From the NCBI RefSeq assembly GCF_003334405.1, contig NZ_QOWM01000023.1: 45,349 nt of DNA. The stretch is one strand, 5' to 3'. Below the pieces are notes generated by a model. That model did not search any database. It saw nothing but the letters and a program-made list of their open reading frames with translations, and was not told where the DNA came from. Source of the DNA: Escherichia coli. Its GTDB lineage: Bacteria; Pseudomonadota; Gammaproteobacteria; Enterobacterales; Enterobacteriaceae. Each line of letters starts with the position of its first letter. The stretch's first letter is position 1. The position numbers were made by a program, and so were the translations under genes. Below are positions 2-39,770 of the stretch, piece after piece.

Positions 2-77
2 TGGTGGGTCGTGCAGGATTCGAACCTGCGACCAATTGATTAAAAGTCAACTGCTCTACCAACTGAGCTAACGACCC
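2..77 (-). tRNA. lysT: tRNA-Lys (anticodon UUU)
   Basis: Reverse complement is a 76-nt tRNA ending in CCA, with anticodon loop CUUUUAA and TTCGAATCC in the T-arm, matching E. coli tRNA-Lys. It sits just downstream of cpoB, as the first tRNA of the lysT-valT-lysW cluster does in K-12. Confidence 0.93.
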
Positions 78-241: not shown

Positions 242-1033
242 TTACATCGCGTTCAGACGTTTTTGTGCCTGTTTAGCGCCATCAGTACCAGGGTATTTAC
301 TGATAACCTGCTGGTATACGGCTTTCGCTTTTGCGGTGTCACCTTTGTCCTGCATGATGACGCCGACTTTAAACATCGCATCTGCAGCCTTTGGTGACTT
401 CGGATAGTTTTTCACTACCGAAGCAAAATAGTACGCCGCATCATCTTTTTTACCCTTGTTGTAGTTTAACTGACCCAGCCAATAATTGGCGTTTGGCAGG
501 TAAGTTGAATCAGGGTAATTTTTGATGAAATTCTGAAATGCCACCATTGCGTCATCCTGGCGGGATTTATCCTGCACCAGCGCAATAGCTGCATTGTAAT
601 CCGTGTTTGCATTACCGCTTTTCACCGGCGCGCCAGCATTCGCAGTACCAGCATCAGCTGTCGGCGTCGTTGATGCCGCCGCACCGCTTTGATCGCCGCT
701 GGTTGATTGCGCCGCTGCACCACCGCTGCTGAGGCTGTCGATCTGCAACAGGATCTGCTTTTGCCGCTCCACGACCTGATTCAGTTGATACTGATTTTCC
801 TGAATCTGACCACGCAGGGAATCAATATCGGATTGATTATCAGAAAGTTGTTGCTGGAGTTGGGTTAAAAGCTGGCTGTGAGCATTAGAAATACGCTCAA
901 GTTGAGTGACGCGGTCTTCGACCGAGCCTGAGCCGACACTACTGATTGGTGCCTGAGCAAAAGCGGCCCAGGGGGCCGCTATACCAACCAGTAACGACAG
1001 ACTCAATAGTTGATGTCTGAAGTTACTGCTCAT
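242..1033 (-). CDS. cpoB: Cell division coordinator CpoB (YbgF), periplasmic TPR protein
   Basis: 263-aa ORF starting MSSNFRHQLLSLSLLVGIAAPWAAFA (signal peptide), with a Q/L-rich coiled coil and C-terminal TPR-like repeats. Last gene of the tol-pal cluster. Confidence 0.95.
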   Translation of the reverse strand: MSSNFRHQLLSLSLLVGIAAPWAAFAQAPISSVGSGSVEDRVTQLERISNAHSQLLTQLQQQLSDNQSDIDSLRGQIQENQYQLNQVVERQKQILLQIDSLSSGGAAAQSTSGDQSGAAASTTPTADAGTANAGAPVKSGNANTDYNAAIALVQDKSRQDDAMVAFQNFIKNYPDSTYLPNANYWLGQLNYNKGKKDDAAYYFASVVKNYPKSPKAADAMFKVGVIMQDKGDTAKAKAVYQQVISKYPGTDGAKQAQKRLNAM

Positions 1034-1042
1034 GCAATTCTC

Positions 1043-1588
<546 letters not shown>

Positions 1589-6449: not shown

Positions 6450-7589
6450 TTAGTACAGAGAGTGGGTGTTACGTTCAATATCTTCTTTGGTGATACGACC
6501 GAACATTTTCCAGTAACACCAGGCGGTGTAGAGCAGAATGATCGGTACCAGAACCACCGCAACCCAGGTCATGACGTTAAGCGTCAGCTGGCTGGAAGTT
6601 GCATCCCACATTGTCAGACTTGCGTTCATCATGGTGCTGGACGGCATCACAAACGGGAACATTGCGATACCGGCTGTCAGGATGATGCAGGCCAGCGTCA
6701 GGGAGGAGAACACAAACGCCCACGCGGCTTTATCCATACGTGCAGTCAGGATGGTCAGCAGCGGCAGAACCACACCCAGTGCCGGAATAGCCCACAGAAT
6801 TGGCGTGTTGTTGAAGTTAACCAGCCATGCGCCAGCTTCACGAACCACTTCTTTATTCAGTGGGTTAGAGGCTGCGTAATGGTCCATTGTCGATTTCACG
6901 ACATAACCATCGATACCGTACATCACCCATACGCCAGCCAGTGCGAAACAGACCAGTGTCACCAGCGCAGCCACCTGAGCCGTTGCACGGGTACGCAGGT
7001 GCAGTTCGCCCACGGTACGCATTTGCAGATAGGTTGCGCCCTGAGTAATGATCATCCCTACGCTCACCACGCCTGCCAGCAGGCCGAACGGGTTAAGCAA
7101 CTGGAAGAAGTTACCGGTGTAGTACAGACGCAGATATTCATCAACGTTGAACGGTACGCCCTGCAACAGGTTACCGAACGCTACACCAATTACCAGCGGC
7201 GGAACGAAGCTACCAATGAAGATGCCCCAGTCCCACATGTTACGCCAGCGGGTTTCTTCAATCTTGGAGCGGTAGTCAAAACCGACCGGACGGAAGAACA
7301 AAGACGCCAGCACGAGGATCATCGCCACATAGAAGCCGGAGAACGCAGCGGCATAGACCATCGGCCAGGCAGCAAAGAGTGCGCCGCCCGCGGTGATCAG
7401 CCAAACCTGGTTACCGTCCCAGTGTGGTGCAATGGAGTTAATCATAATTCGACGCTCGGTGTCGTTACGACCGAGGAAACGGGTGAGCATGCCCACCCCC
7501 ATGTCGAAACCGTCAGTGACTGCAAAACCAATCAGCAGAACGCCAACCAGCAGCCACCAGATAAAACGCAATACTTCATAATCGATCAT
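6450..7589 (-). CDS. cydB: Cytochrome bd-I ubiquinol oxidase subunit II
   Basis: 379 aa polytopic membrane protein, MIDYEVLRFIWWLLVGVLLIGFAVTDGFDMGVGML. Confidence 0.96.
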   Translation of the reverse strand: MIDYEVLRFIWWLLVGVLLIGFAVTDGFDMGVGMLTRFLGRNDTERRIMINSIAPHWDGNQVWLITAGGALFAAWPMVYAAAFSGFYVAMILVLASLFFRPVGFDYRSKIEETRWRNMWDWGIFIGSFVPPLVIGVAFGNLLQGVPFNVDEYLRLYYTGNFFQLLNPFGLLAGVVSVGMIITQGATYLQMRTVGELHLRTRATAQVAALVTLVCFALAGVWVMYGIDGYVVKSTMDHYAASNPLNKEVVREAGAWLVNFNNTPILWAIPALGVVLPLLTILTARMDKAAWAFVFSSLTLACIILTAGIAMFPFVMPSSTMMNASLTMWDATSSQLTLNVMTWVAVVLVPIILLYTAWCYWKMFGRITKEDIERNTHSLY

Positions 7590-12670: not shown

Positions 12671-14647
12671 TTATGGCATTACGCCATCAGTCAGATAGTT
12701 GCCATGCTTAACCGCGTGACGCCGCCACATCAGGAGAATTGCAGTCGAGATTGCAGCCCCCACCAATGCCGCGCCAAACCAGCCAATTGCCGCCATAACA
12801 CCGCCCGCGCCATTATCATGAAGTAAAAAGAGCGAGAAAATGCCGGCACCGGGTGTCGAAAGGCCGATATTCATCGCACCGACAATAGCGCCCGTTACCA
12901 TAGAGCCCAGCACAAACGAACCAATAACCCGCAGCGGATCTTCAATCGCCATCGGGATCGCCCCTTCGGTAATACCTGCCAGCCCTAACAGCCAGGTGGA
13001 TTTCCCGGTCTCAATTTCAAACTCTTTAAACAGGCGCGGTGCGAGCATCGTGGAAGCGGTTACGGTAAATGCCGAAACCATTTTGACGGAGGCGAAAATG
13101 GCATACGGGCCGTAAACGCCGTTCGCCATTGCGCCCAGGCAGAATGCATAAGCGGCTTTATTCACTGGCCCTCCAAGGTCAAAGGAACACATAAAACCGA
13201 GAATGGCACCCAGCAACAGCGCGTTACTTCCTGACAGACCGTTCAGCCAGGCGGTAAGCGAGTTATTGATCCAGGCGACAGGTTCCCCCACCACAAACAG
13301 CATCAGACTGCCCGCTCCCAACGTACCGAGCACCGGGTAGAGATAAAAAGTCAGGAATCCATTGAATTTACTGCTAAGACGCAAGTGATTTTTCACCCAG
13401 CGCATCAAGTAACCGGCTATCAATCCGCCAACGACCGCGCCGAGAAACCCGGAGCCGATCATGTTGGCGGCAAGTCCAGCCGCAAAGCCTGGCGCTAACG
13501 CCGGTTTATCTGCCAGAGAATAGGCGGTATAGGCCGCGAGCACCGGTACCATCAAAATTCCGAGCAGCCCGCCGCCCAGCTTGCGGTACATCCACAGCCA
13601 GGAGTTTTCTTCATTAAACAGATCTTGTAGCCCGAAGATTTGCGACAGTAATACCGCGACCGCCAGCACCGTGCCCCCCGCGACAATCAACGGTACGGCA
13701 AAAGAGATTCCGCTCAACAGTGCCTGTTTCAGCTCCGTTTTGACACTTTTCACCGGTTGCGTATCTTGCTGTACGGTACGCGTCTCATCGCTACGCTTGA
13801 GGGTAAGCGCTTGTTGGATCAACGCTTCTGCATGGCGAATCGGCTCGGCAACAGGCACTGAAAGCGCGGGAATGCCATTAAAACGCTCACTCTCCTTGAT
13901 GGCGACTTCAGCCGCAAAAATACAGGCGGTTGCACTATTGAGTTGATCCGCCGTTAAACGCCCTTCAATGCCGTTAGCGCCTTGTTTTTCAACGTAAACA
14001 TTTACGCCGAGTTTGCGTCCGGCTTTTTCCAGATATTCCGCAGCCATATAGGTGTGAGCAATACCCGCCGGACAGGCCGTTACGCAGACGATAGTTGGCG
14101 CGTTGGAAAAAGAGGCAGAAGGTTGCGTGCCTCCCTTGTCATCCAGCGCCGAGAGCAACTCATCAGGCGTCGTCGCCGACTGTATACGCGCCCGAATCTC
14201 ATCATCCGCAAGGCGCGTGGTCAGCGCTGTCAGCAGTTGCATATGCGTAGTACCCGCTTCATTGGGGGGAATCGCCAGCAGCACCACTAAATCAACTGCT
14301 TCCGGGCCATCAACGCCTTCCCACTGAAGCGGCTCGCTGAGTGTGGCGACCGCAAACGCCGCTTCTTTTACCGCAGCAGTTTTGCCATGCGGCACAGCCA
14401 ACCCTTCACCTAAGGCGGTCGGGCCAAGGCTTTCACGGCGATACACTTCTTCCAGAAATTGCTCAGTACTGGAAATTTTCCCCAGAGCAGCAAGACGTTG
14501 AGTCAACGCGTGGATGGCCTCTTCACGGCTGGTAAAGCGCGCATTCAGACACAACGCATCGCGGTGGGTCAGAGTCGTCAGATTCATCATGATCCTCACT
14601 TGATCGTTTTTATAGTCGCGCCAGTGTGCCCGATAAAACAATACCAT
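12671..14647 (-). CDS. mngA: PTS 2-O-alpha-mannosyl-D-glycerate-specific EIIABC component
   Basis: 658 aa with PTS EIIA(Fru)-like, EIIB and polytopic EIIC regions; fits the mngR/mngA/mngB context. Confidence 0.92.
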
Positions 14648-14755
14648 TATGTGATCAATTTCACTTGATTGAAATTATTTGTATTGTATTTGTATTATTT
14701 ACAGGATGAATTTATCGGGCATGATGGTTAAATTCGTATTAATGAGATACTAAAA
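14648..14755. promoter_or_regulatory. Divergent mngA / mngR promoter-operator region
   Basis: 108-bp AT-rich intergenic region containing the inverted repeat AATTTCA-N6-TGAAATT (14657-14676) and tandem TGTATT repeats (14681-14697). A candidate MngR (GntR/HutC-family) operator, by inference. Confidence 0.35.
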
Positions 14756-15478
14756 ATGGGACACAAGCCCTTATACCGGCAGATTGCCGATCGCATTCGT
14801 GAACAAATTGCGCGTGGCGAGCTTAAACCTGGCGATGCGTTACCCACTGAATCAGCGCTACAAACAGAGTTTGGCGTCAGCCGGGTTACGGTGCGTCAGG
14901 CTTTGCGCCAGCTAGTCGAGCAGCAGATCCTCGAAAGCATTCAGGGCAGCGGGACTTACGTCAAAGAAGAGCGGGTCAATTACGATATTTTTCAGTTAAC
15001 CAGTTTTGATGAAAAACTGTCGGACCGTCACGTCGATACACACAGTGAAGTTCTGATATTCGAAGTGATTCCGGCTGACGATTTTCTTCAGCAACAGCTA
15101 CAAATCACCCCGCAGGATCGTGTGTGGCATGTGAAGCGCGTGCGCTATCGCAAGCAAAAGCCAATGGCGCTGGAAGAAACCTGGATGCCGCTTGCGTTGT
15201 TCCCGGATCTCACCTGGCAGGTCATGGAAAATTCGAAATATCACTTTATCGAAGAAGTGAAGAAAATGGTTATCGATCGTAGCGAACAGGAAATCATTCC
15301 TCTGATGCCAACCGAAGAGATGAGCCGTCTGCTTAATATCAGCCAGACAAAGCCGATTCTTGAAAAAGTATCGCGTGGATATTTAGTTGATGGTCGGGTG
15401 TTTGAATATAGCCGCAACGCTTTTAATACCGATGACTATAAATTTACCCTGATAGCGCAGCGAAAATCATCGCGATAA
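14756..15478 (+). CDS. mngR: GntR/HutC-family transcriptional repressor MngR (FarR)
   Basis: 240 aa, N-terminal GntR-type HTH (ALPTESALQTEFGVSRVTVRQALRQLVEQQILESIQGSGTYV) and UTRA-type C-terminal domain. Confidence 0.93.
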   Translation: MGHKPLYRQIADRIREQIARGELKPGDALPTESALQTEFGVSRVTVRQALRQLVEQQILESIQGSGTYVKEERVNYDIFQLTSFDEKLSDRHVDTHSEVLIFEVIPADDFLQQQLQITPQDRVWHVKRVRYRKQKPMALEETWMPLALFPDLTWQVMENSKYHFIEEVKKMVIDRSEQEIIPLMPTEEMSRLLNISQTKPILEKVSRGYLVDGRVFEYSRNAFNTDDYKFTLIAQRKSSR

Positions 15479-15484
15479 GCACAA

Positions 15485-15581
15485 AAAAGGCCATCATACG
15501 ATGGCCAACCATGTCGAAACCGACAGCCCTTCGCCATTCCTGTAGAGGGAAGCGGCGAGGGCTATTTCTTATTACAGATAT
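15485..15581 (-). ncRNA. sdhX: SdhX (RybD) sRNA from the sucD 3' UTR
   Basis: The sequence directly 3' of the sucD stop ends in the intrinsic terminator GGCCAUCGUAUGAUGGCC followed by UUUUUU (15483-15510, minus strand). Position and terminator fit the known 3'-UTR-derived sRNA of the sdh-suc transcript. The 5' boundary is set by processing and not determinable here. Confidence 0.6.
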
Positions 15582-16451
15582 TTATTTCAGAACAGTTTTC
15601 AGTGCTTCACCGATATCCGCCAGGCTGCGAACGGTTTTCACGCCTGCGGCTTCCAGAGCAGCGAATTTCTCATCCGCAGTCCCTTTCCCACCGGCAATGA
15701 TGGCACCCGCGTGGCCCATACGTTTGCCTTTCGGCGCAGTCACACCAGCGATGTAACCCACAACTGGCTTGGTAACGTGCTCTTTGATGTACGCAGCTGC
15801 TTCTTCTTCAGCGCTACCGCCGATCTCACCGATCATCACGATCGCTTCGGTCTGCGGATCTTTTTCGAACATTTCGAGAATGTCGATAAAGTTAGAGCCC
15901 GGGATCGGGTCACCGCCGATACCGACACAGGTCGACTGACCGAAACCGTAATCCGTGGTCTGTTTAACCGCTTCATAGGTCAGTGTACCGGAACGGGAAA
16001 CGATACCCACTTTACCCGGTTTGTGAATGTGACCAGGCTGGATACCGATTTTGCATTCACCCGGAGTGATAACGCCTGGGCAGTTCGGGCCGATCATACG
16101 AACGCCTGCTTCATCCAGCTTCACTTTCACGGTCAGCATATCCAGCGTCGGGATGCCTTCAGTGATGGTGATAATCAGTTTGATGCCTGCGTCGATGGCT
16201 TCCAGAATGGAGTCTTTGCAGAACGGTGCTGGTACGTAGATAACAGAAGCGGTAGCGCCAGTGGCAGCAACGGCTTCACGCACGGTGTTGAACACCGGCA
16301 GGCCGAGGTGGGTGGTGCCGCCTTTACCTGGGGTTACGCCGCCAACCATTTTAGTGCCGTATGCAATGGCCTGTTCTGAGTGGAAAGTCCCCTGGCTACC
16401 GGTAAAGCCCTGGCAGATAACCTTGGTGTTTTTATCGATTAAAATGGACAT
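15582..16451 (-). CDS. sucD: Succinyl-CoA synthetase alpha subunit
   Basis: 289 aa, [45 protein letters not shown]. Confidence 0.97.
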
Positions 16452-17617
16452 TATTTCCCCTCCACTGCGGCAACAACCTGCTGAGCTGCATCCGTCAGAC
16501 CTTTTGCTGCAATAATATTCAGGCCGCTGTCAGCCAGTTTCTTCGCGCCGAGTTCGGCGTTGTTACCTTCCAGACGTACCACGACCGGTACGTTAACACC
16601 CACTTCTGCTACCGCGCCGATGATACCGTCAGCGATCAGGTCGCAACGAACGATACCGCCGAAGATGTTAACCAGAACGGCTTTCACTTTGTCGTCAGAG
16701 AGGATGATTTTGAACGCTTCGGTTACACGTTCTTTGGTTGCGCCGCCGCCAACGTCAAGGAAGTTAGCCGGTTCGCCGCCGTGCAGTTTAACGATGTCCA
16801 TCGTACCCATCGCCAGACCTGCGCCGTTAACCATACAACCGATGTTACCGTCCAGCGCAACGTAGTTCAGTTCCCACTGTGCAGCCTGTGCTTCACGCGG
16901 ATCTTCCTGCGACTGGTCACGCATTTCGCGCAGATCAGGCTGGCGGAACAGTGCGTTGCCGTCAGCGCCCAGTTTGCCGTCGAGGCAAATCAGATCGCCC
17001 TGTTTGGTGATGACCAGCGGGTTGATTTCGATCAACGCCAGGTCGCGCTCCAGGAAAATGGTCGCCAGGCCCATGAAGATTTTGGTGAACTGCTGAACCA
17101 GTTTACCTTCCAGACCCAGTTTGAACGCCAGCTCGCGTCCCTGATACGGCATCGGGCCAGTCAGCGGATCAAGCGCAACTTTATGGATCAGGTGCGGAGT
17201 TTCTTCCGCCACTTTTTCGATTTCCACGCCGCCTTCGGTGGAGGCCATAAAGACCACACGACGGGAACTACGGTCAACAACGGCACCGAGATACAGCTCT
17301 TTAGCGATATCGGTCGCTGCTTCAACCAGAATCTGGTTAACCGGTTGGCCATTGGCATCTGTTTGATACGTTACCAGACGCTTGCCCAGCCAGTTTTCTG
17401 CAAAAGCACGGATGTCTTCTTTGCTGTTTACAACTTTCACACCGCCCGCTTTACCGCGGCCACCAGCGTGAACCTGACATTTCACTACCCACGGACCGGC
17501 ACCGATTTTTGAAGCGGCTTCTTCTGCTTCGCGCGGAGTAGTACAGGCATAACCCACCGGTGCTGGTAAGCCATAGCGGGCAAAAAGTTGTTTTGCCTGA
17601 TATTCATGTAAGTTCAT
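16451..17617 (-). CDS. sucC: Succinyl-CoA synthetase beta subunit
   Basis: 388 aa, [39 protein letters not shown] (ATP-grasp); overlaps the sucD start by 1 nt. Confidence 0.97.
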
Positions 17618-17699: not shown

Positions 17700-17960
17700 C
17701 CCGTAGGCCTGATAAGACACGTTAAACGTCACATCAGGCATCGCTTGTCGGATGCGGCGCTTGCGCCTTATCCGACCTACATTGGTGGTCCCCGTAGGCC
17801 TGATAAGACACGTTAACCGTCACATCAGGCATCGCTTGTCGGATGCGGCGCTAGCGCCTTATCCGACCTACATTGGTGGTCCCGTAGGCCTGATAAGACG
17901 CGTCAGCGTCGCATCAGGCTTCAATTGCCGGAGAAGGCGATAATGCCTTATCCGGTCTAC
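17700..17960. repeat. Tandem array of three ~90-bp BIME/REP units in the sucB-sucC intergenic region
   Basis: Units at 17700-17790 and 17791-17880 are near-identical (two substitutions and one indel by eye). A third, more diverged unit lies at 17881-17960. Each unit holds two REP-type palindromes (GCCTGATAAGAC...GTCACATCAGGC and GTCGGATGCGGCGC..GCGCCTTATCCGAC). Confidence 0.85.
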
Positions 17961-22195: not shown

Positions 22196-22316
22196 GCCTG
22201 ATGCGCTGCGCTTATCAGGCCTACGGGTAATGACTTGTAGGCCGGATAAGGCGTTCACGCCGCATCCGGCACTGGTTGCCTGATGCGACGCTTGCGCGTC
22301 TTATCAGGCCTACGGT
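22196..22316. repeat. REP (BIME) palindromic units in the sdhB-sucA intergenic region
   Basis: Three REP-type palindromes: GCCTGATGCGCTGCGCTTATCAGGCCTAC, GTAGGCCGGATAAGGCGTTCACGCCGCATCCGGC, GCCTGATGCGACGCTTGCGCGTCTTATCAGGCCTAC. They abut the sdhB stop codon. Confidence 0.85.
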
Positions 22317-39662: not shown

Positions 39663-39770
39663 GCCTGATGCGACGCTTGACGCGTCTTATCAGGCCTACG
39701 TATTTCCTGCAATTTATTGAATTTGCACAAATTTGTAGGCTGGATAAGGCGTTCACGCCGCATCCGGCAT
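39663..39770. repeat. REP (BIME) palindromic units between dtpD and phr
   Basis: GCCTGATGCGACGCTTGACGCGTCTTATCAGGCCTAC and the inverted GTAGGCTGGATAAGGCGTTCACGCCGCATCCGGC, separated by an AT-rich spacer. Confidence 0.85.

Follow-up and report, generated by a model that had tools for sequence, protein, structure and literature searches.

The sucD-mngR interval

The window analysed here is a 45,349-nucleotide stretch of the Escherichia coli chromosome in which sucD and mngR converge, with a gap of 103 bp between them. sucD (15582..16451, minus strand; 289 amino acids; stop codon TAA at 15582-15584) is the last gene of the sdhCDAB-sucABCD operon and belongs to the parental mRNA of the small RNA discussed below; mngR (14756..15478, plus strand; 240 amino acids; stop codon TAA at 15476-15478) is its convergent neighbour and lies outside the small RNA. 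Both genes come from the list of open reading frames, and they are named after 100%-identical E. coli records annotated in RefSeq. After its stop codon (15584-15582), sucD is succeeded on the minus strand by AUAUCUGUAAUAAGAAAUAGCCCUCGCCGCUUCCCUCUACAGGAAUGGCGAAGGGCUGUCGGUUUCGACAUGGUUGGCCAUCGUAUGAUGGCCUUUUUUGU. Each of the 5426 complete E. coli genomes contains a match to a 321-nt query that bridges the gap between the two genes.

The gap contains sdhX (formerly rybD; b4764), the full 101-nt form of which occupies 15481..15581 on the minus strand and begins with the base that follows the sucD stop codon; nucleotides of SdhX are numbered such that nucleotide n lies at window position 15582 - n. 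Over these positions the window is identical to sdhX of E. coli K-12 MG1655 (101/101; NC_000913.3 765050..765150), and an alignment of 15470-15600 (minus strand) against K-12, which includes all 101 nt of b4764, shows 100% identity over 131 columns. The NC_000913.3 annotation places the ncRNA sdhX ("small regulatory RNA SdhX") at 765050..765150, between the end of sucD (765049) and mngR (765153..765875). The element is on the same strand as sucD, directly downstream of its stop codon, at the 3' end of sdhCDAB-sucABCD, and it contains both G62 and C34, the positions mutated in earlier work and counted there from the end of the sucD coding sequence (PMC6393394). The preliminary description, which had assigned 15483-15581 to the SdhX sRNA of the sucD 3' UTR and had proposed alignment to the published SdhX sequence as a check, is borne out by this base-for-base identity to K-12 sdhX, together with G62 and C34, the published seed and the terminator. 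No difference from K-12 SdhX was found in the 101 nt, the position after sucD, the seed, the terminator or the neighbouring mngR.

The same description called the feature invisible to ORF-based annotation, and this proved correct: in 24 of the 25 RefSeq records listed, automatic annotation has no feature under the sdhX match. No SdhX/RybD family was returned from Rfam 15, either for the whole window at the gathering threshold or for 15350-15750 at E<=10; Rfam 15 has no such family, so that covariance models give no confirmation. One terminator-like match, to isrD, reached 17.3 bits where the gathering score is 37, and the remaining sub-threshold matches were noise. A peptide-coding, dual-function sRNA was considered and rejected: the open reading frame at 15436..15537 (minus strand) begins within SdhX and passes the 3' end of the RNA without a stop codon, so that it is not translatable from SdhX.

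Several other structured elements were recognized in the window by Rfam. Two naRNA4 matches (REP-type nucleoid-associated RNA) at 17706..17777 and 17797..17868 (minus strand; 59.8 and 59.5 bits, gathering threshold 59.5) form a tandem pair just upstream of the sucC reading frame (16451..17617, minus strand), which corresponds to the sucB-sucC intergenic region of K-12, and a third, stronger match (88.4 bits) lies at 22240..22310 on the plus strand. The others are a CpoB/ybgF ICR RNA thermometer (1004..1142, minus strand; 142 bits), a tRNA (5..77, minus strand; 79 bits) and the ES036 (CssrF) sRNA (39692..39734, minus strand; 75 bits).

Terminator, seed and target pairing

The minimum free energy fold of the 101-nt SdhX has -41.3 kcal/mol (z = -4.7), and none of 200 shuffled sequences was as stable. 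It includes a long, imperfect 5' hairpin (nt 19-57; 15525..15563, minus strand), which is the Escherichia-specific variable part and is absent from Franconibacter SdhX, and a Rho-independent terminator hairpin, GGCCAUC-GUAU-GAUGGCC (nt 76-93; 15489..15506, minus strand), recognized by terminator scanning, folding and conservation of its stem. The terminator stem, read from 15506 to 15489, has 7 pairs, 5 of them G-C, and a loop of 4 nt, and is followed by TTTTTTGT; folded alone, the hairpin has -12.7 kcal/mol (z = -5.0; 0/200 shuffles as good). A terminator scan of 14500-16500 gave one site, on the minus strand, against 2.5 expected in shuffled sequences, which is no enrichment. The hairpin is completed by a U6 tail (15483..15488, minus strand), the presumed Hfq-binding 3' end of the RNA, which ends at 15483. 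The earlier statement that the ~100 nt after the sucD stop codon end in a strong minus-strand intrinsic terminator is therefore correct, given the hairpin at 15489..15506 and its six uridines.

The 3' end agrees with published, curated Term-seq ends (Adams et al., eLife 2021, supplementary file 1, PMC7815308). A dominant one at K-12 765148 (+), scored 19841.8 and 34703.6 in two table rows, corresponds to window position 15483. The flanking sequence given there puts the end on the last U of GGCCUUUUUU, and it coincides exactly with the start of the feature as first described (15483); the K-12 annotation of sdhX reaches 15481, 2 nt beyond it. In the Term-seq table the end is labelled "antisense to mngR" because sdhX was absent from the annotation used (PMC7815308). 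The TERMITe supplements yielded no entry for the sdhX locus.

A conserved seed, UUCGACAUGGU (nt 64-74; core CGACAU), lies just 5' of the terminator at 15508..15518 (minus strand) and pairs with the start-codon region of ackA. This 11-mer has a single exact match in the window, where none is expected by chance. The preliminary description had left the seed unconfirmed, and the published one (PMC6393394) is now found at this position. In the fold of the 101-nt form, the seed part CGAC is contained within a weak 4-bp helix. A short form of approximately 38 nt would span 15483..15520 (minus strand), its 5' end being placed by homology to Salmonella SdhX2; in a fold of the 38 nt ending at the Term-seq 3' end, nt 1-14 are unpaired, leaving the seed free, and are followed by the terminator hairpin.

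Pairing was recomputed with K-12 target sequences, both as seed-window duplexes and as counts of contiguous complementarity. Positions -2..+7 of ackA (CCAUGUCGA) form 9 contiguous Watson-Crick pairs with SdhX nt 65-73 (seed-window duplex, -17.1 kcal/mol), and this site, which spans the start codon and the second codon, has the complementarity expected of an SdhX target. For fdoG, the pairing stretch of SdhX is GUUUCGACAU (nt 62-71; 15511..15520, minus strand), which includes the E. coli-specific G62 and was identified from recomputed pairing and published compensatory mutants; it forms 10 Watson-Crick pairs with fdoG -22..-13 (AUGUCGAAAC), G62 standing opposite C-13. The katG-pairing region, GCUUCCCUCUACAG (nt 29-42; 15540..15553, minus strand), is an E. 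coli-specific anti-Shine-Dalgarno element that contains C34 and was delimited by recomputed pairing; 10 contiguous Watson-Crick pairs connect its nt 33-42 to katG -20..-11 (CUGUAGAGGG), in the Shine-Dalgarno region. E. coli yfbV forms only 6 contiguous pairs with SdhX, which fits the reported loss of its regulation.

When 100-nt segments from elsewhere in the 45-kb window were compared with the whole of SdhX, a contiguous run of 9 occurred in 2.9% of them and a run of 10 in 0.8%. Against this background the ackA, fdoG and katG sites are unusual, not extreme, and proof of their function rests on published mutants and on RIL-seq and CLASH chimeras. Compensatory mutations have demonstrated base-pairing regulation of all three mRNAs, the mutants including G62 with fdoG C-13 and C34G for katG (PMC6393394), and the recomputed ackA, fdoG (G62:C-13) and katG sites agree with these data. 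Chimeras of the sucD 3' UTR with ackA, fdoG and katG have been reported from Hfq RIL-seq and CLASH. Full-length RNAduplex calculations, pairing the 101-nt SdhX with 100-nt targets, were no better than shuffled ones (for ackA, -42.0 against a mean of -41.6), a result that is uninformative because intramolecular structure is ignored.

The cydB mRNA (6450..7589, minus strand) contains, at 7499..7512 (minus strand), an exact same-sense copy of SdhX nt 60-73 (CGGUUUCGACAUGG; 14 nt), which covers most of the seed and codes for D-G-F-D-M-G near the CydB N-terminus. Being same-sense, this copy has no possibility of pairing with SdhX. It is probably a coincidence, the rough chance expectation being ~0.03 such repeats per 45 kb.

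Conservation and the mngR side of the locus

The 101 nt of sdhX are present in all 5426 complete E. coli genomes, and in 5425 of them at least 80% of the query is covered; of the 5427 records with a match, 4086 are at least 99% identical and a further 1334 are 95-99% identical, which makes 5420 at 95% or more. A pattern scan (CTGAAATAA-N35-65-TTCGACATGG) of one genome per prokaryotic species gave 66 loci. Seven follow a sucD C-terminus. The other ~59, among them a locus in Erwinia with no sucD before it, lie in unrelated taxa and were discarded as matching by chance. The scan did not recover Salmonella or Klebsiella, presumably as the pattern does not fit the spacing or the 3' codons of sucD in these genera, and its cross-species view is narrower than that of the published alignment. 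The same 99-101-nt element is found in E. coli, E. albertii, E. whittamii, Escherichia sp. E1V33 and a metagenome-assembled genome (MAG) labelled Citrobacter. In two Franconibacter species the 3' UTR is shorter (77-80 nt) and its 5' part unrelated, and the identical stretch UUUCGACAUGGUU is kept.

Across Escherichia and Franconibacter the seed UUCGACAUGGU is invariant, and in the terminator stem 100% of cells are paired among 5 distinct sequences. Compensatory changes are seen in the 5' hairpin of E. albertii (C28U/G47A) and, with one pair altered from U-A to C-G, in the terminator stem of Franconibacter. Judged from these few species, covariation is thin, with one compensatory pair per hairpin, in agreement with the published conservation of only the seed and U-tail. 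In the MAG labelled Citrobacter sp. (HRGM_Genome_0066), sdhX and the 3' end of sucD belong to the Escherichia type, only one loop base differing from the window, and the downstream flank matches that of the E. coli neighbourhood with the RtcB-family gene, so that either the bin or its label would seem to be Escherichia in reality.

Salmonella SdhX1 (87 nt) and SdhX2 (38 nt) share with the E. coli RNA the origin at the sucD 3' end, the conserved seed, the terminator architecture and the ackA target. However, the 5' part is longer and different in E. coli, where it bears the katG-pairing stretch, and E. coli has G62 where Salmonella has U, by which fdoG was gained as a target. CpxQ, SroC, NarS, MalH and GlnZ resemble SdhX in being 3' UTR-derived RNAs that are cleaved from a parental mRNA, processed by RNase E and dependent on Hfq, in using the intrinsic terminator of the mRNA as the Hfq-binding 3' end and in having the seed just upstream of it. 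Unlike these, SdhX forms the end of a very long, eight-gene operon and is unusually poorly conserved outside the seed and U-tail.

The last U of the U-tract (15483) is separated from the mngR stop codon by 4 nt (15479-15482), and the base of the terminator stem (15489) by 10 nt. The preliminary description put the mngR stop codon 5 bp beyond the hairpin, which is right only when the hairpin is taken to include the U-tract and wrong when the distance is measured from the stem base. It also had the terminator region shared with mngR, and here the abutting of the genes stands, but the sharing needs qualification. A bidirectional terminator for sucD and mngR, the sequence of which would be maintained by this shared role, would suit the convergence of two genes only 103 bp apart, the nearly equal folding of the hairpin on both strands (-13.0 kcal/mol on the plus and -12.7 on the minus strand) and the A6 run that precedes it on the plus strand. 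On the mngR strand, however, the hairpin runs into AACCAUGUCG (AACCAUG) without a U-tract, UUUUUU being present only on the minus strand; the terminator scan found no plus-strand terminator; and a search of the Term-seq tables of Adams et al. (2021) showed no mngR-strand 3' end listed here (PMC7815308). The hairpin is not a canonical bidirectional terminator.

The neighbourhood itself also speaks against a shared role. In 1543 of the 5426 complete E. coli genomes (~28%), less than 80% of the 321-nt sucD-sdhX-mngR query is covered, and the three non-mngR neighbourhoods examined indicate that mngR is replaced in these genomes, synteny being broken near the U-tract. In O157:H7 SS52, homology stops a few bases from the U-tract and is followed by a LysR-family gene, cobO and a fumarate hydratase gene; in another E. 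coli strain it likewise stops a few bases from the U-tract, where a convergent RtcB-family gene ends. The hairpin is intact in both of these, the two neighbourhoods that have no IS insertion, from which it follows that the terminator belongs to sdh-suc and SdhX; a joint role with mngR is thus very unlikely. In the third, FDAARGOS_944, an IS1 element is inserted after the GG of the seed and splits it from the terminator, which amounts to a natural disruption of sdhX.

On the plus strand, the complement of the SdhX 5' hairpin (15525-15562; -23.7 kcal/mol) is followed by UAUUUCUUAUU, giving a terminator-like signal that spans 15525..15573 and was missed by the simple scan because its stem is imperfect. 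It is conceivable, if unlikely, that mngR transcripts run past the SdhX hairpin to this second hairpin. In that case the 3' UTR of every mngR mRNA would be antisense to nearly all of SdhX, with ~90 nt of perfect complementarity, and SdhX could be sponged or destroyed when mngR is expressed, for instance via RNase III. In the opposite direction, mngR could be suppressed by strong transcription of sdh-suc, whether through collision or through antisense pairing. Either route would connect the utilisation of mannosylglycerate to the TCA/acetate switch. A Rho termination region at ~15027 (minus strand), antisense inside mngR (K-12 765604 (+); Rho score 2.86), has been reported (Adams et al., 2021, supplementary file 2, PMC7815308). 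It suggests that part of the sdh-suc transcription continues past the SdhX terminator, antisense to mngR, until Rho stops it, and such read-through is compatible with crosstalk of mngR with SdhX. Among the RIL-seq partners given for the sucD 3' UTR, mngR does not appear.

Biogenesis and role of SdhX

SdhX (formerly RybD) was found as an Hfq-bound RNA, and co-purification, CLIP, RIL-seq and CLASH document its association with Hfq. What is said here of Hfq binding, of processing by RNase E and of in vivo repression comes from the literature, the present analysis providing identity, seed, terminator, structure, target complementarity and conservation; the primary E. coli SdhX paper (De Mets et al., 2019, PNAS) is cited through PMC6393394 and PMC9438474. 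The RNA occurs in forms of ~101 or 87 nt and of 38 nt, the latter being enough for ackA repression, and an rne-ts strain of Salmonella lacks both species at the non-permissive temperature (PMC6393394). The short form depends on the 5' sensor of RNase E.

According to the mechanism that these data point to, SdhX would have no promoter of its own but would constitute the last ~100 nt of the ~10-kb sdhCDAB-sucABCD mRNA, ending at the intrinsic terminator (15483-15506). RNase E would cut near the sucD stop codon to release the ~101-nt form, and a second cut just 5' of the seed would yield the ~38-nt form. The single-stranded seed UUCGACAUGGU would then pair with the ackA start-codon region and lower the synthesis of acetate kinase, leaving pta unaffected. 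In E. coli, the seed extended by G62 would in addition repress fdoG, and the anti-Shine-Dalgarno element in the 5' hairpin would repress katG. SdhX would in this way couple expression of the TCA-cycle operon to acetate and acetyl-phosphate metabolism. Published work agrees on each of the targets: ackA translation is repressed via start-codon pairing with pta spared, which ties TCA-cycle expression to acetate and acetyl-phosphate metabolism (PMC9438474), and in E. coli fdoG is repressed via the G62-extended seed and katG via the variable 5' region (PMC6393394). The link between TCA-cycle expression and acetate metabolism, given as established in the preliminary description, accords with Miyakoshi et al. 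(2019) and with the review PMC9438474.

Transcription from an independent promoter inside sucD, as for MicL in cutC, would help to account for the report that SdhX and SucD levels are not always parallel (PMC6393394), and a weak promoter-like match (9/12) does exist at 16027..16000 (minus strand), ~420 nt upstream of SdhX. However, a consensus scan of the minus strand, a method that does not prove absence, found no promoter-like site by the SdhX 5' end or within ~400 nt upstream, the literature reports no transcription start site there, and both SdhX species vanish in the rne-ts strain (PMC6393394), so that an own promoter is very unlikely. Alternatively, the region might be only a passive sucD 3' UTR that ends transcription and shields the mRNA from 3' exonucleases with no trans-acting role. 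The terminator is real and ends the operon, as found by scanning and Term-seq, and removal of the complete 3' UTR in Salmonella lowers SucD, hence also a role in cis (PMC6393394). Yet Escherichia and Franconibacter share, in UTRs otherwise unrelated, an invariant 11-nt unpaired stretch just 5' of the terminator, compensatory mutations have been published for ackA, fdoG and katG (PMC6393394), and Hfq RIL-seq and CLASH chimeras have been reported; a purely passive role is thus exceedingly unlikely. The locus is, with a probability of about 0.97, sdhX, the gene of the Hfq-dependent SdhX (RybD), a 3'-end product of the sdhCDAB-sucABCD mRNA; none of the present results speaks against this.

As described here, sdhX is an already known and experimentally characterised sRNA gene at its known locus, with nothing new. 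Its value is that of a positive control, a real non-coding gene located from sequence alone and missed by ORF-based annotation, and it brings no new biology. SdhX is a textbook case of an operon mRNA whose 3' end has given it a regulatory function: it connects the expression of TCA-cycle genes with acetate kinase and, through this enzyme, with the level of acetyl-phosphate.
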